NCBI GenBank assembly: GCA_049472355.1
Contig: JBLIRP010000064.1
Span: forward strand, 1-24,320
Direction: 5' to 3'
Length of the DNA: 24,320 bases
DNA from: a bacterium
GTDB taxonomy: Bacteria; SZUA-182; DTGQ01; JAFGSM01
Of this stretch, positions 5,289 through 20,433 are shown piece after piece. Both the position numbers and the translations under genes were made by a program. Numbering within the stretch: position 1 is the first letter of the stretch; every line of letters starts with the position of its first letter. The notes under the pieces were generated by a model. The model ran no database searches and was not told the origin of the DNA. It saw only the letters and a program-made list of their open reading frames with translations.

Positions 5289-5346
5289 GTCCCGGTCCTG
5301 ACCAAATGCCTGGCGAAGGCGATACCTTGAAGGGGCTTGAAATATT

Positions 5347-5550
5347 TAATTGCCCAACATGGTACGGGGAGGGGAATGCATCTTTTGTTTCGGCTCCCTT
5401 GCACACAGCCTGTAAGGCTCGCTTCGGGCACACCTCAACTCGCCCTTCGGGCTCGAACAAGCGGCGTGCTTTTCCTCAGCTTCGCCCACATGCTGTAGTG
5501 CTCGTCCGCAGGCACACAGATGCATCCCCCTCCCCGTTTTACACAGGGTA
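5347..5550 (+). repeat. ~204-bp dispersed hairpin element, copy 1 (structured RNA or MITE/REP-like)
   Basis: Aligns with the reverse complement of 7135-7340. Outer stem CGGGGAGGGGAATGCATCT/AGATGCATCCCCCTCCCCG, apical GCCC-TTCG-GGC loop. Confidence 0.9.
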
Positions 5551-7134: not shown

Positions 7135-7340
7135 TACCCTGTGGGCGATAGGGCAAGGGGGGTGCGCCTGTGTGCCTGCGGACGAGCACTACAGCCTGTC
7201 GGCGAAGCTTCGGAAAAGCACACCGACTGTTCGAGCCCGAAGGGCGAGTTGAGGTGTGCCCGAAACGAGCCTTACAGGCTGTGTGCAAGGGAGCCGAAAC
7301 AAAAGGCGCATCCCCCTTACCGCACGATATTGAGCAATTA
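7135..7340 (-). repeat. ~206-bp dispersed hairpin element, copy 2
   Basis: Inverted copy of 5347-5550 with long identical stretches. Outer stem GGTAAGGGGGATGCGCCT/AGGCGCACCCCCCTTGCC. Confidence 0.9.
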
Positions 7341-7456
7341 TCTTTTTCGCCTTTTTAACCGCCATTGTTCCATTGAGCGGCATTCAGGCGGGTATTGATG
7401 CATCGATGCCATGATTCAGCCCAAAAGACATTGAATCACAAAGCACGTAACCGCAA

Positions 7457-8608
7457 CTACTTTCTTTTCAGATTGATCCATTTTTCGTCCAGCCCTGCCA
7501 TTCCCTCCCAGGCACGGTCCAGATACAACATATCAAGGGTGGCGATTGCAGCCATGGCCTCGATCACCGCATAGATCCTTCCGACCAGGGTGGGATCCCT
7601 CCTGGTGATGGGGCTTAAGGTCTCTTCCTTCATGGTCGTCATGTTGATGGAAGGCTGCTCTACCGAGACGGTGGGGGTGGGCTTGATGGCCATCCTGCAC
7701 ACAATATCCTCCCCGTTGGTCATACCGCCCAGGACCCCGCCTGCATGATTCGTTCGGAACCTCACCTTTCCCTTATCAAGGTAGGGATGGTCATTGAATT
7801 CACTCCCCTTCATGGTGCCGCACCTGAACCCCGAGCCGAACTCGATTCCCTTCACCGCCCCGATACTCATGATGGCATGGGATAACACCGCGCCGAACTT
7901 GTCAAACACGGGCTCCCCCAGGCCGGCCGGGATATTATGGATCACCAGCTCAATGATGCCGCCCATGGTATCCCCCTCATCCTTCACCTCCAGGACCTTT
8001 GTGGTCATCTCTTCGGCGGCATCGAGATCAGGGCAGTTGATCTCGTTCTTCCGGTAGTTTTTCTTGGCCTCGTCAAAACTCATCGGTTTGGCCTTGATCC
8101 CGGCGCATTCAACGGTATATGCGAGGACCTCTATCCCGTGCCGGGCCAGGATGATCTTGGCCAATGCCCCACCTGCCACCCTGCCCACCGTCTCCCTGCC
8201 GGATGCCCTGCCGGCACCGCACCAGTCGGCTGACTCGCCGTACTTCAGGAAATAGGTATATTCGGCATGGCCCGGCCTGATAAGGTCCTTGTAATCCCTG
8301 TACTGGTCGATATGTACCATCTGCGTATCCACGTTATACACGATCATCCCCACCGGGGCCCCCGTGGTCACCCCGTCCTGTCCCATGCCCGCAAAGATAT
8401 GGACCTGGTCGGTCTCCTTCCTGGGAGAGTCGAGCTTGCCCTGCCCCGGCCTCCTCTTGTCCATCTCCCTCTGTATCATCTCATCCGTGAGCTTGATGCC
8501 CGGCGGCACGCCGTCGACGATCACCGCCAGGCCCGAGCCCTTCCCAATGCCATACGATTCCCCGCAGGTGGTGACCCTGAATATCCTTCCGAAGCTATTT
8601 CCCATCAT
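7457..8608 (-). CDS. aroC: Chorismate synthase (divergent motifs)
   Basis: GNSFG..FRVTT.GES, RRPGQ, RPGHA, GRASGRET, KGIEFGSGF, NHAGGVLGG and KPTP motifs. AAGGAGGT SD. Confidence 0.95.
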   Translation of the reverse strand: MMGNSFGRIFRVTTCGESYGIGKGSGLAVIVDGVPPGIKLTDEMIQREMDKRRPGQGKLDSPRKETDQVHIFAGMGQDGVTTGAPVGMIVYNVDTQMVHIDQYRDYKDLIRPGHAEYTYFLKYGESADWCGAGRASGRETVGRVAGGALAKIILARHGIEVLAYTVECAGIKAKPMSFDEAKKNYRKNEINCPDLDAAEEMTTKVLEVKDEGDTMGGIIELVIHNIPAGLGEPVFDKFGAVLSHAIMSIGAVKGIEFGSGFRCGTMKGSEFNDHPYLDKGKVRFRTNHAGGVLGGMTNGEDIVCRMAIKPTPTVSVEQPSINMTTMKEETLSPITRRDPTLVGRIYAVIEAMAAIATLDMLYLDRAWEGMAGLDEKWINLKRK

Positions 8609-8626
8609 TGTGAACGACCTCCTTGA

Positions 8627-9898
8627 CTATTCCATGATCTCCATGTCAGCCCCAATTCCCTTCATGATACCAGCATAATCCGGGAATGTCACACCCACTG
8701 CCTCGGCCGTGTCGATCACGGTCCGCCCCGAGGCCGTCATCCCGGCAAGGCTCAAGGCCATCACCACCCGATGATCATGGTATCCATAAACATGGGCGCC
8801 ATGAAGCCCCGAATGCTCGATGACCATGCCATCTTCCCTTTCCTCGACATGGGCACCCATCTTTGTGAGCTCATCCGTCATCACCCTGATCCGGTCCGTC
8901 TCCTTTATCCGGGCATGGGCGACATTCCTGATGACGGTCTGTCCCTGTGCATAACATCCGAGCACACTGATGGCAGGCAGAGCATCCGGGGTATTGTTCA
9001 GGTCCAGTTCACATCCGGTAAGCATGGATCCGTTCACCACGATGCCCTCTTTCCCAAACCTTATATCAGCACCCATTTCCCTGAGATACTCCAGCACGTG
9101 CCTATCCGCCTGGGTATCTCCCATATCCAATCCCTTGATAATCAAATCCCTTCCGAGCATCACCCCGGCAACAAGCATAAAGGTGGCGCTCGACCAGTCG
9201 CCGGGAATGGTTTTCTCGAAGGCCGTATAGGCTTGATTCCCGAAGATCCTTATGGTTTCAAGATCATGGTTCTCATATCGTATCCCCAACTCATCCAGCC
9301 ATCTGAGTGTCATCTCGATATAGGGCCGCTCGCAGAGATTCACTATCCTGATTTGGGTGTCCCGAGAGGCCAGCGGACAGTTGATCAGCAGGCTTGAGAT
9401 ATACTGCGAGCTCCGGCAGTCCACTGCGACCCTCCCGCCCTTCAACCTCCCTGTAATCTCCACAGGGGGGCATCCGTTGTTATGCACGGAAACTGCCTGT
9501 GCTCCAAGCATATTCAAGGCATCGAGCAATGGCTGCACCGTCCTTTTTCGTATCGAGGCGTCGCCATCGATAAGGACCTTTTTGTCGCCAAGTGCGGCGG
9601 TGCCCATGATCAGGTTGGTGGTGGTACCTGAATTCAGCGTGTCGATCCTCACACCCGTTTTCGGCCTTCCTGAAAACCCGCTGACGATGAATTCCCCGCC
9701 CTTCTTCTTTATTCCGGCGCCCAGTGCCGTGCACGCATTGATCGCCGCCCGTGTATCGGCGGATTCAAGCGCATTGACTAATCGTGATTCTCCCTCGGCA
9801 AGGGAGGCAAAGACAAATCCCCTGATGGTGTGGGACTTGCTGCTTGGCACCAGGACCTCTCCGCTTATCTTCTCCGTTCTATTAATCTGTAATCTCAT
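8627..9898 (-). CDS. aroA: EPSP synthase
   Basis: PSSKSHT, NSGTT, SSQYISSLL, PGDWSSA, RIKETDRI and DHRVVM motifs. Confidence 0.96.
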   Translation of the reverse strand: MRLQINRTEKISGEVLVPSSKSHTIRGFVFASLAEGESRLVNALESADTRAAINACTALGAGIKKKGGEFIVSGFSGRPKTGVRIDTLNSGTTTNLIMGTAALGDKKVLIDGDASIRKRTVQPLLDALNMLGAQAVSVHNNGCPPVEITGRLKGGRVAVDCRSSQYISSLLINCPLASRDTQIRIVNLCERPYIEMTLRWLDELGIRYENHDLETIRIFGNQAYTAFEKTIPGDWSSATFMLVAGVMLGRDLIIKGLDMGDTQADRHVLEYLREMGADIRFGKEGIVVNGSMLTGCELDLNNTPDALPAISVLGCYAQGQTVIRNVAHARIKETDRIRVMTDELTKMGAHVEEREDGMVIEHSGLHGAHVYGYHDHRVVMALSLAGMTASGRTVIDTAEAVGVTFPDYAGIMKGIGADMEIME

Positions 9899-9944
9899 AG
9901 ATCTCCCAAAACCGCCTTTTTCATCAATTCCTTATCGCAATCCT
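9824..9944. repeat. Direct repeat A (att-like): aroE 3' tail plus aroA 5' end, identical core 9882-9926
   Basis: Matches 12754-12874 at offset 2930 with no gaps. 14 mismatches in 121 bp by my count, 45-bp perfect core. Confidence 0.95.
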
Positions 9945-10158
9945 GGATGAATTTGCCTTCCGCATCCTCTGGGTAATAAGGCCTCAGCCTTTCCCATTCC
10001 CTGGGCTGTGATTCCTGAACAAACGCCAAAACCGCCCTTTTATCAAAGGCCAGATCAGTGCTGAAATCGCCGGCTTTGCCCGCCACCCAACCATTTTGGA
10101 CGAGATGGTCTACGATGGCGGACTCAAAGGTGGATTCGGTGTGGATACCATCAACCAT
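9895..10158 (-). pseudogene. hsdR: Type I restriction subunit HsdR N-terminal fragment (~72 aa) fused in frame to the duplicated aroE C-terminus
   Basis: IHTESTFESAIVDHL..GW...FVQESQPREWERL resembles HsdR N-termini, then DCDKELMKKAVLGDL*, compared with the AroE end DCNKALMKKAVLGDL*. Confidence 0.8.
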
Positions 10159-10375
10159 ATCTTTCCTTTTCCCCAAAAGCCAATGATCAGAGAGTCAAGG
10201 TTTTATATACTGATCCTGATATCATCGTAAACCCACGCCCATCATCATAAATCCACGCTCAGTTACATAACCGTTACATAAGATTTCATTTTATTTTTAA
10301 TAACTTAGCCAATACGAACGGTGTTTGACCATATAAATTGCACATGAAACCCTATATTTTCCGTACAAAAAACAC

Positions 10376-11836
10376 TCAGACCCAGAATGGAACATATTTG
10401 GCATATTTTCTTGATTTTCTATCCGCATCATAATCCCTGATAAATCCGGCTTGAATGGAATCACTGATAATGCGTGAGACGATCGGATAATTTTTTTCAT
10501 CAATACCGAATCTTTCGCGTAAGCTCTGATTGGTCATGAGCTCACCTGAAACGTATTTAAGACAGGCATGCAGATAGCAGGCGCGGATTTTGGCCTGTTT
10601 ATCCATCTGCCGCAATGTCAGAGGGGCGAACAGGATAACCCTGGTAAAGTTATCCCCGATAATGATCTCAGGCGCAGGCAATTGATACAATTCACATTCA
10701 AAAACGACCTTGTCAAAACCGCTGCCTCTTTCTTCACAGATATTCAGACGCCTCATCATACGGGCAAGTTGTTCATTTCTGCTTTCGGGACTGTGATCTA
10801 TAAAGCGAAGGGCATCAATAAGCGGCTTGCCAGGATTAGTGATTTCAATCCGATTATCGAACAATTCAACCATCGATGATGCACCACCAACACTAAAATC
10901 CTGATGGATAATCGCATTGGCAACCAGTTCACGAATAGCAATCGCCGGATATATAGTCACCTCTTTTCGAAGGGCCTGTTCAATGACCTCATTCGTCGGC
11001 AATTGATCGAGCATATATTCTATAAGCCCTTCAAATCCAACAGCATAACCCTTTCTGCCAATTTGTTCTTTTTTTGTTTTAACCCGATTATTTCCCTGAT
11101 AGATAATGACTCTTACTGCCTTTCTTGCAAGCGTATCGAATTGCTCCAAGTCCTTTGCAAACAGGATCCCGCCAAGGTTTGTAATATTGTATCTATCGCC
11201 GCATACTTCGATAACCCTGTCCTGCATTAGTCGGTCAAGTATACCCTTCCTGTTATCCGGCAATGGCAAATTGGACATCTCAAAATATTTGGGATAGTCA
11301 ATCAGACTGAGAACTTCATCTGAAGATGCCTTTTCAAATGCGATGCCTTTCTCGAAAACCGCATGATTCGTTCTTTGCCATATTTTTCGTTCCCTCTCAG
11401 GGTGATCATCGAGGTGTTTTTTATAGGAACCAATGCGAATAAATGTTTCACCCCTGAAGCTGACAGGCCGGTCTCTGGTGGCATCTATCCTGAATATGGC
11501 GAAATGTTTGCCTTCAAAGTCGAACTCAAAAATATCGAGATCTATCCTCGGATTAAGTTGGGTGACAAGGCAGTTCTCCAGTTCCTGATTCCCTTTTTTC
11601 GTTGTCAAGGGACGAAATGTGGTCCCGACCAGCCTGTGTGTTTCATTCTCGATGCCAAAAACCAGATAACCATAAGGCTTGTTTGCATAACGGGCGCTGT
11701 TCGAGAGGGCAGACAGATACTCCCCAATTTCCTGCGGATTCCAATTATCAACCTTGAACTCGGCCCACTCGCATTCCTTGGGCAAAGCCTGGAGAGATTT
11801 AAGCAATTTTTCTAATTCTTTTTGTTTCATTATCAT
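10376..11836 (-). CDS. Schlafen/AlbA_2 domain protein with HATPase (RecG C-terminal-like) and probable wHTH domain
   Basis: ECEWAEFK, SALSN, YLVFGI (AlbA_2). AIRELVANAIIHQDF, IEITNPG, RNEQLA and EERGSG (HATPase_c_4-like). Intact 486 aa, AT-rich. Confidence 0.88.
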   Translation of the reverse strand: MIMKQKELEKLLKSLQALPKECEWAEFKVDNWNPQEIGEYLSALSNSARYANKPYGYLVFGIENETHRLVGTTFRPLTTKKGNQELENCLVTQLNPRIDLDIFEFDFEGKHFAIFRIDATRDRPVSFRGETFIRIGSYKKHLDDHPERERKIWQRTNHAVFEKGIAFEKASSDEVLSLIDYPKYFEMSNLPLPDNRKGILDRLMQDRVIEVCGDRYNITNLGGILFAKDLEQFDTLARKAVRVIIYQGNNRVKTKKEQIGRKGYAVGFEGLIEYMLDQLPTNEVIEQALRKEVTIYPAIAIRELVANAIIHQDFSVGGASSMVELFDNRIEITNPGKPLIDALRFIDHSPESRNEQLARMMRRLNICEERGSGFDKVVFECELYQLPAPEIIIGDNFTRVILFAPLTLRQMDKQAKIRACYLHACLKYVSGELMTNQSLRERFGIDEKNYPIVSRIISDSIQAGFIRDYDADRKSRKYAKYVPFWV

Positions 11837-11852
11837 ATCACCTTGATTTATA

Positions 11853-11999
11853 TTATATCACCTTGATCTTCCCTGTCACCACCTCGCTGATCAAGGCTGT
11901 GCGATATTCCTGAAGGAGGCTGTTTTCTTCAACATTAATATAAAACCATTGTAAATTGGCTGCTCCTAAATATGGTTTTAAATGATAACCTCCTTTATC
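11853..11999 (-). pseudogene. hsdS: HsdS remnant: TRD fragment joined to the conserved C-terminus
   Basis: Manual translation DKGGYHLKPYLGAANLQWFYINVEE-NSLLQEYRTALISEVVTGKIKVI*. LQEYRTALISEVVTGKI is the typical HsdS terminus. Confidence 0.85.
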
Positions 12000-12004
12000 A
12001 TCAA

Positions 12005-12180
12005 AAGTTCCCCCACTTCTTTTTGGCTTAGTTCCAGCTTGGTGCCGACTTGGTGCCAGCTTAGTGCCGGCCTGGTGCCAACCTCATCATGGGCTTTTGA
12101 AGATTCAATGACTTCGGGATGGATCATGAATGTCGTTTTGAAACAGATCCGCTCTTCATCGGTCTCAAAAACGGATTTCG
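12005..12180 (-). pseudogene. Internal fragment of a second RecG-like/AlbA-HATPase family gene
   Basis: VFETDEERICFKTTFMIHP and LSWHQVGTKL resemble the post-HATPase region of such proteins (recognised from memory, unverified). Confidence 0.5.
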
Positions 12181-12185
12181 ACTCC

Positions 12186-12213
12186 TCATTCATCATTCAA
12201 CATTCATCATTCA
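12186..12213 (-). repeat. Four tandem heptamers TGAATGW
   Basis: Plus strand reads TCATTCA TCATTCA ACATTCA TCATTCA, overlapping the hsdM stop. Confidence 0.85.
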
Positions 12214-12734
12214 ACCACTTCCCTTATCATTCCATCCGTTTCCTGTTCCAGGGCCAGGATGTCCCTGCGTATCTCCTCCATGCTGCGCAGGGGTTTGTAT
12301 GTATAGAAATACCTGGTGAAGTTGATCTCATAGCCGATCAAAGAGCAACGACCCGTCGCTTATCGAAGGCAGGCCCGCATCAAAACGCCCGGCAAAGCCC
12401 TTATTTCTCGAACTCGTCCTTGATCTGCTTTTGGGCCTTTTTCCAGTCCACCCCAAAGGGGGGATTGCTGAGCATTCAGGTCGTGGGGGTATTCATCGGC
12501 AATGGAGAGCATCCCGCCGGTGCCGCAGGCAGGGTCGGAGAGGGTCTTGACGATGCCCTCCTTTCTGAGGATGTCTTTGTCATTGACAAAAAGGAGGTTC
12601 ACCATCAGTCTTATGACCTCACGGGGGGTGAAGTGTTCCCCTGCTGTTTCGTTGCTCAGTTCGGCGAATTTGCTGATCAGTTCTTCAAAGATGTATCCCC
12701 TTTCCATACTGTCCACATCCCTGAAATTGTTCAT
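12207..12734 (-). pseudogene. hsdM: HsdM remnant made of four joined fragments
   Basis: MNNFR | GYIFEELI..ETAGEHFTPREVIRLM..DPACGTGGML | MLSNPPFGVDWKK..GRF.AGLP.ISDGSLLF | IGYEINFTRYFY.YKPLRSMEEI..DILALEQE..* in shifting frames. Confidence 0.92.
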
Positions 12735-12753
12735 GTTTCTCACCAATCGATCA

Positions 12754-12874
12754 AATTGTATGGGACTTGCTGCTGGGTACCAGGACCTCTCCACTGATTT
12801 GCTCTGTTCTGTTAATCTGTAATCTCATAGATCTCCCAAAACCGCCTTTTTCATCAGTGCCTTATTGCAATCCT
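12754..12874. repeat. Direct repeat B (att-like): true aroE 3' end plus a 25-codon dead-end aroA fragment, identical core 12812-12856
   Basis: Translates MRLQINRTEQISGEVLVPSSKSHTI*, compared with AroA MRLQINRTEKISGEVLVPSSKSHTIRG. Confidence 0.95.
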
Positions 12875-14291
12875 TCCCTGTCCACAGCAGGAATTGCCGT
12901 GCCGCCTGATTAACGAACATCTCCACCCCTGAAACCGTCCGGCAGCCATTCTCAGCCGCCATCCTTAATAATCTGGTTTGACTGGGATTATAAACCGTAT
13001 CAAAAACAACCATATCCTTCAATACATCCGCCTCCACCGGGCTTTGGTCAATATCCGGTGACATGCCGATGGAGGTGGCATTGATCAGGATCTCCACGTC
13101 ATCCCATGGCACATCATCCATGCTCACAAACGTGCATCCCAGGTCAGCGGCCAGCCCCCTTCCCTTCTCCTCCGTTCGGTTGACGATGCTCAACCTCGCT
13201 CCCCTCTTCAGGACACCATAGCCGATTGCGCGTGCCACCCCCCCGGCTCCGATCATCAGCACCTTCCTTCCATCCAGGCGGGTCTTCCCTTCGATGGCCT
13301 CCACGGCCCCGTCGATATCCGTATTAAATCCCATTAACCTTCCGTCCCTCACCACGACGGTATTCACCGCACCCACCCTGCGGGCATCATCATCCACTTC
13401 ATCCAGGTATTCCATGATCCCCTGTTTATGGGGCATGGTCACACTAAAGCCGGCCAGTCGCTCCCTGAATGCGGACACGAATGCACCGATGTCATTGACC
13501 GGGAAATTGAGATACACGGCATTCAACCCGTGCTCCCTGAAACAGAGATTATGGATGAGATACCCCTTGCTCTTGGATACGGGGTTTCCGACCAGGCCGT
13601 ACAGGCGCAGGCCTTTGAGCTTGAGATCCTTGACCCTGTAGACATCCCTCAGGGTAGTACAGCGGATCTGGCCGGGTGCGGATTCCCTTCCCTTCTCCAT
13701 GCTGCCGAAGGTGAGGTACGAACCATAGGCGCACGCGAGAATTCTGGATATCTCTCCCAGGTCTCCCATGCATATCCCGATAAAATCCCTGCCCTCTTTC
13801 CTGGCCTGTTCAATCAGGCTGAGCATCCTCAGATTGTCCCTTAAATCCGTTGGCATCACGGCTATCTTCAGGATATCCGCGCCGAACCCCTTCATCTGCT
13901 CATAAATCCCTTCAATATCCGCAGGCATCTCGTTGAAATTATGATAGGATAGAATAATCCTTGAATCCTTTCTGCAGGCCATCACCTCCTGCACTGCCCG
14001 CCTGCCGGAACTCATCTCGATATCCACATGATCAGCACCGAACTCGGCGCACCGTCTCAATATCTCTATCCTTCTCTCCTCGCTGCCGGAATACCTCCCC
14101 CCTTCATCCGGCTTCCTGCAGGTCATGATCAGGGGGCATTTTTTCCAGGATATGATCTCTTTCAGGTCGGCATCATTCAATTCGGATATATAGTCCAGCC
14201 TGACCTCGACGATATCCGCCGTCCGGGCGACCACATCCATATGTCTCCTTACGTCACCGATATCTTCCGCAATGACCGGACAGCATATCAC
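12825..14291 (-). CDS. aroE: Bifunctional type I 3-dehydroquinate dehydratase / shikimate dehydrogenase (AroD-AroE fusion)
   Basis: EVRLD, SYHNF, LKIAV and SAPGQ (AroD). SVTMPHK, GAVNT, NTD, GAGG and NRT (AroE). GTG start. Confidence 0.95.
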   Translation of the reverse strand: MICCPVIAEDIGDVRRHMDVVARTADIVEVRLDYISELNDADLKEIISWKKCPLIMTCRKPDEGGRYSGSEERRIEILRRCAEFGADHVDIEMSSGRRAVQEVMACRKDSRIILSYHNFNEMPADIEGIYEQMKGFGADILKIAVMPTDLRDNLRMLSLIEQARKEGRDFIGICMGDLGEISRILACAYGSYLTFGSMEKGRESAPGQIRCTTLRDVYRVKDLKLKGLRLYGLVGNPVSKSKGYLIHNLCFREHGLNAVYLNFPVNDIGAFVSAFRERLAGFSVTMPHKQGIMEYLDEVDDDARRVGAVNTVVVRDGRLMGFNTDIDGAVEAIEGKTRLDGRKVLMIGAGGVARAIGYGVLKRGARLSIVNRTEEKGRGLAADLGCTFVSMDDVPWDDVEILINATSIGMSPDIDQSPVEADVLKDMVVFDTVYNPSQTRLLRMAAENGCRTVSGVEMFVNQAARQFLLWTGKDCNKALMKKAVLGDL

Positions 14292-20299: not shown

Positions 20300-20433
20300 G
20301 GGGATTGTCAAGATGAAACGCACATGAGCCGGATGAAACTGCGAATATCGAATGTAGAATGTGGAAGTGAAACGCAGATGAGCCTTCGGCTCACAAAGAG
20401 GCATGAAAATCCTGGGGGATTGTCAAGATGAAA
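20300..20433. repeat. 19-bp direct repeats flanking a 96-bp repetitive segment
   Basis: GGGGATTGTCAAGATGAAA at 20300-20318 and 20415-20433. Also TGAAACGCA(C/G)ATGAGCC twice, GAATNNN heptamers and a TGAGCC-TTC-GGCTCA hairpin. Confidence 0.75.

Follow-up and report, generated by a model that had tools for sequence, protein, structure and literature searches.

A telescoped type I restriction-modification remnant between diverged copies of the aroDE-aroA junction

The restriction island and its parts

The stretch of DNA analysed here (the window) comprises 24,320 nucleotides of contig JBLIRP010000064.1, part of a genome bin of 148 contigs that is 87.5% complete (G000). A 2.8-kb insert, the island, separates aroDE from aroA and is bounded at both ends by 120-bp direct repeats, which are 89% identical and span the aroDE stop and the aroA start. 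The genes and gene pieces of the island and its flanks are all on the minus strand. Upstream of the island lies aroDE (12825..14291; assigned by Pfam), an intact host gene that encodes a dehydroquinase-shikimate dehydrogenase fusion and is about 91% identical to its counterpart in genome G001. The upstream repeat copy (12755..12874) consists of the aroDE 3' end and a dead 74-nt aroA start. The downstream copy (9825..9944) consists of a dead aroDE tail and the live start of aroA, which together with aroC forms the intact downstream host genes (7457..9898; NCBIfam). The insert contains restriction-modification (R-M) pieces and one AlbA-type gene alone, with no integrase or transposase in it as it now stands. 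The 120-bp repeat occurs only twice in G000. All four congeners, which are other species and not strains of the same species, have an empty site with a single copy and no insert. The aroDE/aroA core had no match among viral contigs, which gives no hint of a phage att site at this place. In G000 a simple CRISPR scan yielded a single tandem repeat with a 75-bp period and no other candidate array. Elsewhere in the window, a pair of 193-bp inverted repeats, 88% identical, surrounds two genes (5339-5531 and 7156-7348); the copy at 7156-7348 is located 3' of aroC and outside the blocks aligned with G001.

The island begins with the left joint, J7, and a 20-nt hsdM leader (12735..12754). The leader carries an SD-like site, GGTGAG, 5 nt upstream of the hsdM start, and 11 of 15 comparators among the matches listed begin MNNFREK. 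The first hsdM piece contains codons 1-5 (MNNFR; 12720..12734) and is joined in frame at J1, where 429 bp are lost, to codons 147-230 with the motif I region, in which four conserved residues are altered (12474..12725). Joint J2 (158 bp lost) leads to codons 283-327 with the NPPF region, where a conserved Gly is altered and a 1-nt insertion is found near 12404 (12340..12475), and J3 (656 bp lost) leads to codons 547-589 and the stop (12207..12339). Both J2 and J3 break the frame. A run of GAATGNN heptamers (12184..12212) follows and ends at J4 near 12183, where at least 1,170 bp are lost. The next piece is internal to a RecG-like AlbA_2/HATPase_c_4 gene, from about codon 390 (12003..12183; comparators L121, L075, L066 and L012). 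It ends at J5 (about 985 bp lost), beyond which are an AT-rich piece of the second target-recognition domain (TRD) of hsdS, with 85.5% nucleotide identity to L075 (11928..12005), and, after the in-frame joint J6 (387 bp lost), the hsdS C-terminus and stop (11853..11931). The J4 and J5 deletion sizes were obtained by arithmetic on L075 and L121. All eight segments named in the initial annotation are present, on the minus strand and in native order, and its estimate of roughly six deletions agrees with the six internal deletions counted.

A promoter-like sequence, GTGACA-16-TATAAT (11 of 12 positions, with TG), whose function is putative, lies within the hsdS tail (11830..11879). It is followed by the surviving cargo, an intact gene of 486 codons with SLFN_AlbA_2 and HATPase_c_4 domains (10376..11836; Pfam). 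Between this gene and hsdR there is a conserved TTATGTAAC-GG-TTATGTAAC motif (10258..10285), which is shared by eight other loci. Only codons 1-71 of hsdR remain, fused in frame at J8 (9944) to the duplicated aroDE tail (9895..10158). The stop of this fusion overlaps the start of aroA, an arrangement also found in the native operon, and an in-frame outcome has one chance in three.

The span from hsdM to hsdS, about 4.7 kb in intact relatives, is reduced to 882 bp, so that 19% is kept. The codons left are 177 of 589 in hsdM, about 50 in hsdS and 71 in hsdR. Homology to all three genes was found and intact frames for all three were absent, which leaves a remnant only; the R-M genes of the window cannot restrict or methylate. 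Intact relatives have the same arrangement. L075 contains an intact hsdM, a RecG-like gene and the same hsdS TRD in the same order, L066 and L074 have hsdM, the RecG-like gene and hsdS ordered as in the string, and L084 combines hsdM, hsdS, an AlbA gene and hsdR in one locus.

The heptamer run after hsdM may come from a four-helix-bundle cassette. It had no match in 16 comparators among the matches listed, and a literature search on a heptamer or four-helix-bundle origin gave nothing relevant. A dispersed repeat family with variable GAATGTA-type heptamer runs and a conserved GTGAAACGCA(C/G)ATGAG tail is found at 20303-20384 of the window and on many other contigs of G000; it resembles a miniature mobile element.

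Point decay and the surviving gene

The string was initially described as having few point lesions. They are indeed few, yet the decay is real, about 2% rather than negligible. The hsdM pieces have five private changes at 106 invariant columns, compared with 0-2 in 30 intact homologues, and a looser count gives 6 of 129 columns; both counts correspond to about 2% divergence since inactivation (about 1.9%). The 1-nt insertion near 12404 is the one small indel in the string, against six large deletions.

The AlbA gene has three private changes at about 192 invariant columns, compared with 3-6 in seven of eight homologues (the most distant homologue has 49). The chance that a 486-aa frame would survive decay like that of hsdM is about 5%. 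The AlbA_2/HATPase_c_4 gene is thus the only part of the island under purifying selection, and it is a candidate stand-alone defence or stress gene singled out by the trimming. Just 5' of it there is an imperfect 20-bp tandem duplication (11830-11873) with the -10-like TATAAT in copy 1 and an SD-like AAGGTGAT in copy 2. The site in the hsdS tail is a putative promoter of the AlbA gene, in a scan that found 11 such sites where 9 were expected. The 880-bp string is debris without a function of its own, except possibly for this putative promoter. The TTATGTAAC-GG-TTATGTAAC motif is located 3' of AlbA-type genes or 5' of hsdR in L020, L021, L023, L024, L052, L053, L078 and L084 and is possibly an operator or promoter element.

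Entry of the unit and origin of the deletions

The dead and live aroA starts differ at 10 of 74 positions. Nine of the differences are synonymous and one is a replacement (P ~4e-5 under neutral decay), and at three sites where the live copy agrees with G001 the dead start has the outgroup-like state. These two findings indicate that the dead start is not an in-place copy left to decay; by its substitutions, the upstream repeat copy is shown to come from another lineage of the genus. In the Nobusato model the target is reportedly duplicated in place, both repeat copies being derived from the recipient's own target. Such a duplication was rejected for this island because the three sites place the dead copy outside the group formed by the live copy and G001, and its differences from the live copy are nearly all synonymous.

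Codon phase was examined in 10 of 33 repeat pairs in G000. Five pairs, including that of the window, have at least 60% of their mismatches in one phase, and a sixth has too few mismatches to judge. One of the five belongs to an island at C77:18418-23044 (L143), where a DNA methylase gene and an HNH gene lie between 327-bp copies, 86% alike, of the end of an ABC-ATPase gene (typed by eye); this island is probably another R-M insertion flanked by a foreign repeat. At C31:1528-4921 of the same genome a 3-kb insert lies between 205-bp gene-end copies, 93% alike, of a putative V/A-type ATPase subunit D gene.

The order of pieces and the foreign repeat suggest how the island arose. A type I R-M unit consisting of hsdM, the RecG-like gene, hsdS, the AlbA_2/HATPase_c_4 gene and hsdR would have been inserted at the aroDE-aroA junction. 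It would have entered along with a short segment of the aro operon of a congener, giving rise to the two diverged 120-bp repeats. Entry may have occurred by homologous recombination with a circle or a linear fragment, probably after natural transformation; the DNA-uptake genes comEC and dprA have matches with open frames in G000, and the host is putatively competent. The foreign flanking repeat agrees with transfer of R-M units from species to species on arms of host genes.

No near-identical intact donor was found for the pieces, the best of 73 hsdM loci being 78-83% identical per piece, and a plasmid search gave distant hsdM matches only. The overlaps at the joints are therefore deduced from comparators that are 70-86% identical: 7 of 8 nt at J1 (TTCA(G/A)GGA), 2 nt (AT) at J2, 0-1 nt at J3, about 3 nt (approximately TGA) at J5 and 2-4 nt (AA or AAGA) at J6. 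By these comparisons some joints would have microhomology, as proposed from the start. The AATG proposed at about 12475 does not hold, since C or T, not A, precedes ATG in 15 of 15 right-hand comparators at J2 and only AT is shared. At J8, hsdR and aroDE share AG, and an in-register similar stretch lies 8 nt beyond the crossover.

Several readings other than deletion of a resident unit were weighed. Graph shortcuts in the assembly of a metagenome bin could have produced the joints, and the genome is a bin of 148 contigs. The joints share fewer than 10 nt, far below assembly word sizes. In addition, the breakpoints were compared with contigs from four of 20 listed runs (X3, X7, X8 and X9), two possible-source runs being left out. 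Three X3 contigs span all eight joints with 0, 0 and 1 difference, so the breakpoints, which the initial annotation wished to see supported by reads, recur in these data. Contigs of X8 cross J2, J3, J6 and J8 and those of X9 cross J2 and J6. X8 and X9 may represent one campaign, and X3, whose year is that of the possible source study, may belong to its campaign. X7 yielded no long island contig and is uninformative, as only 59% of the run was read; one joint at depth 3 in it carries 32 foreign letters and was treated as noise. With joints crossed by contigs of runs from 2020, 2021 and 2025 at 0-1 differences, an assembly artefact has an almost negligible probability. A mosaic drawn from more than one donor, or the end-joining of shattered DNA, would account for the strongly unequal GC3 (0.08 in the hsdS TRD, 0.67-0.83 in hsdM); Ku was not found in the 87.5% complete genome, so that end-joining, if any, would proceed by microhomology. 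Against it, the native order and strand of five internal pieces would arise at random with a chance of 1 in 3,840, and the gene set and the TRD occur together in single intact loci (L075, L066). The hsdM pieces also agree in their top-ranked comparators (Spearman 0.33-0.55, n=73), which is consistent with one donor for all pieces, a point raised at the outset, and makes the mosaic highly unlikely. Still less probable, and very remote in our judgement, is a functional mini-cassette, whose kept pieces would be selected homology arms moving the AlbA gene into other R-M loci. Gene ends are retained in the string, short hsdM or hsdS end fragments lie beside cargo genes in L011, L097 and L059, and the AlbA gene is frequent in R-M loci (L084, L023, L024). 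The pieces, however, have altered invariant residues, and the retained hsdM codons are only weakly enriched in conservation (0.894 versus 0.855 for the lost ones; P = 0.07, two internal blocks), which does not bear out the suggestion that they serve as arms. G000 has no second copy of the string and no R-M target for a mini-cassette, a phylum search of 19 further genomes gave no other copy, and the similar fragment strings expected elsewhere were absent from the 136 loci scanned. No terminal inverted repeat was seen among the 25 longest of 127 pairs listed.

A chimera of 63 codons at L011:3329-3520, composed of an hsdS N-terminus and an hsdM C-terminus, lies between two cargo genes of an intact R-M locus; its hsdM part starts at most three codons from the start of the last hsdM piece of the window.

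Damage to R-M genes was also surveyed in other loci, taken from bins and as assembled sequence only. An hsdR match was present in 52 of 79 fetched loci, among which 38 are intact, five are cut by the edge of the locus and nine are damaged. Large deletions are responsible in four of the nine. L078 (about 530 bp) and L079 (about 430 bp) have a single deletion each, with about 7 nt of homology at the joint, and their point decay is not in excess; L108 has two hsdR deletions, a 1-nt indel and a lost hsdM start; and L101 is an hsdM-hsdR fusion. The other five have frameshifts, stops or truncation, some of which may be sequencing errors. In L089:10001-21749 there are two copies of the hsdM region, separated by 8.7 kb and equal in match score, which represent a tandem R-M duplication or an assembly repeat.

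Telescoping is found elsewhere in G000 as well. Self-comparison revealed copies of an AcrB-family gene, 78-91% identical, at C112, C30 and C48+C60, with deletions of 274, 216, 695, 1,669 and 638 bp. Most of their differences are synonymous; stops are absent and there is one 1-nt gap. Decay affects 5 of 44, 0 of 22 and 1 of 74 (C48+C60) invariant columns, where 40 intact homologues have a median of 0.75%. The related genomes G004 and G005 have one telescoped copy each of the same gene amid toxin-antitoxin-like cargo. The telescoped RND efflux copies indicate that telescoping is not specific to R-M or defence genes. On C113 an intergenic copy lacks two segments, of 179 and 138 bp, and the 179-bp deletion lies at a 9-nt repeat. 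Overlaps in the other strings of G000 are 0-9 nt, and copies with one, two and six joints exist. The scans behind these observations were of three kinds. A tblastn search of 974 proteins of the fetched loci against G000 gave collapsed gaps at the window and on C65, C85, C90 and C95. Nucleotide comparison gave 92 junction clusters, of which the RND, C113 and C65 clusters were inspected; the others appeared by eye to be noise-like repeat families and were left uncounted. A protein self-scan of 1,928 ORFs gave five joints, three in RND copies and two within long ORFs.

The AcrB-family array (C112:13926-22649, L138; C30:7586-7982; C48:1-210; C60:1-1468; also L157 in G004 and L158 in G005) consists of an AcrB-family gene followed by diverged telescoped self-copies interleaved with PIN, AbiEii and AlbA_2/HATPase_c_4 cargo. 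The array has the look of an accretion hotspot common to the family.

The number of deletions is high for the point decay, as first noted. At a neutral ratio of 0.037 non-IS deletions per substitution, derived from the E. coli data in the available part of PMC10292909, six or more joints arose in 0-2.5% of stepwise simulations at 2-3% point decay. At this ratio six joints with at most 1.2 kb left were seen in none of 1,500 runs in each of four settings. With ratios of 0.1-0.4, six or more joints arose in 0.7-19% of runs, and in 0-11% with at most 1.2 kb left. The locus is a tail event under the simulation model, and deletions above the E. coli neutral rate make selection or a high deletion rate likely. 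The other damaged R-M loci likewise point to a deletion ratio above the E. coli value. Loss of repair genes was considered as a cause and rejected: recJ, mutS and recO are present, sbcD is below the cut-off and Ku was not found in the 87.5% complete genome.

Whether the deletions accumulated separately or arose together was the central question left by the initial annotation, which favoured a concerted process. In such a process most deletions would have occurred in one event or a short burst tied to the uptake and integration of foreign DNA, by homology-anchored illegitimate recombination with several forward jumps or by serial template switching, and the decay would have come later. Several facts speak for it: the excess of deletions over the neutral laboratory rate, the presence of comEC and dprA, the in-register hsdR/aroDE similarity 8 nt from the J8 crossover, and the position of every telescoped string found in G000, which is in or beside islands with diverged flank copies. 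The last link is biased, however, as the scans required a nearby reference copy. Two-deletion copies with almost no decay exist, and C48+C60 (1 of 74) and L108 count against a stepwise reading in that they also fit a burst. A single event is nevertheless not required, because R-M loci with one deletion (L078, L079) and with two (L108) exist, as does the one-deletion stage C30, and the copies differ in age. L078, L079 and L108 come from unrelated taxa, so that a machine specific to the lineage is unneeded, and products with several deletions are not described in the available text of PMC6382021 on homology-facilitated illegitimate recombination. Concerted compaction is accordingly rather unlikely. 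Ordinary pseudogenisation had been expected to show stepwise intermediates with proportional decay. The stages were found in related R-M loci; the proportionality was not, since L078, L079 and L108 lack excess point decay. No intermediate of the window's own locus was seen: the island contigs of X3, X8 and X9 all have the same structure, and none of those listed is a shorter or longer allele, although contigs drop rare variants.

The explanation we consider likely as a whole is that of an R-M remnant that entered with a foreign flank, lost its sequence by separate deletions, decayed by about 2% and kept its AlbA gene. Separate deletions, each of about 160-1,170 bp and with 0-8 nt of homology at the joint, would have cut down the dead R-M genes while point decay went on. 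The deletions and the decay are read directly from the locus, and their stepwise order would follow from the intermediates in relatives. The deletions may have occurred by slippage or end-joining at short homologies. They were probably favoured, as the junk lay co-directionally inside a needed operon, or else this type of deletion is simply frequent here; selection against transcribed junk in the aro operon may have aided their fixation. The AlbA gene would have escaped the trimming together with its putative promoter, and the coupling to aroA would have been kept. If the hsdS tail does hold a promoter, the argument from polarity for a benefit to aro expression loses weight.

A broader proposal, to which we give a low probability, is that in this competent sediment lineage defence cargo crosses species on housekeeping-gene arms, foreign partial copies are left behind as repeats, and the redundant DNA is collapsed by a burst of deletions of several hundred bases tied to uptake, integration or break repair and not by gradual erosion. 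If this is true, the unproven step of 'release and re-infection' of R-M units, as well as a deletion process that outruns point mutation, would be recorded in the window, in the RND array and in the islands on C77 and C31.

Comparison with known systems

Insertion of R-M genes with long target duplication was described by Furuta, Abe and Kobayashi (2010, PMC2853133). In the available text of that paper, long imperfect direct repeats enclose the R-M genes, the empty site has one copy of the repeat and an integrase is lacking, as in the window. The repeats of the island exceed 30 bp (120 bp) and are not dispersed, the empty site is single-copy, and no integrase or transposase is present. According to the same text, the repeats often extend across a start codon or a stop codon, and the majority of hosts have natural competence. 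Among the type I cases, operon-like targets, partial R-M genes and a passenger gene for an 'ATP binding protein' are described. The window differs from the class so described in that one repeat copy comes from another lineage and not from the recipient's target, and in that the R-M genes are telescoped by six deletions. The foreign copy bears on 'release and re-infection', a step that the available portion of PMC2853133 calls unproven.

Pseudogene erosion is the second point of comparison, as far as the accessible text of the sources goes. Microhomology was found at 171 of 396 pseudogene deletions, and indels in pseudogenes have a power-law distribution in which few exceed 15 nt (PMC6054270); pseudogenes that are expressed are removed by selection (PMC2916853); and about 25% of deletions raised fitness (PMC3386194). 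Slippage is treated in PMC4948707. As in the window, deletion in these accounts removes dead genes, often at short homologies and faster than neutral if they are expressed. Small indels dominate the curated sets, as far as they are described there, with a mean deletion of 19-40 nt and multi-gene deletions excluded. In the window, by contrast, large deletions outnumber small indels six to one and a readable string is left. Large deletions outnumber small indels in other remnants of G000 too, a spectrum missed by curated pseudogene studies and measurable in this lineage.

In the model of PMC5635113 (2017), as given in its available sections, cargo without mobile-element genes moves by recombination of neighbouring host genes, more so in transformable species. 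That model is a double crossover with replacement, whereas in the window a diverged partial copy of a host gene is left as a repeat. Homology-facilitated illegitimate recombination in competent bacteria, as outlined in the accessible part of PMC6382021, brings in foreign DNA by combining a homologous anchor with an illegitimate joint at short homology, a route that the entry of the island may resemble. The joints of the window have 0-8 nt of overlap, and several internal deletions in one product are not described in that part. None of the titles listed in the literature searches describes telescoped gene strings, subscription papers being mostly outside their coverage.

The intact loci of the MNNFREK hsdM subfamily (L075, L066, L074, L084; PADLOC MTase_I PDLC03029) have the same genes, order and passenger families as the window, which retains 19% of their hsdM-to-hsdS span and 71 hsdR codons. 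As dead DNA the string is no new defence system, and its value is as a record of process. The locus can be explained as an extreme instance of deletion-driven decay in an island of a known type, and what places it above the routine is the foreign repeat copy together with a trimming by several hundred bases at a time that recurs across the family.
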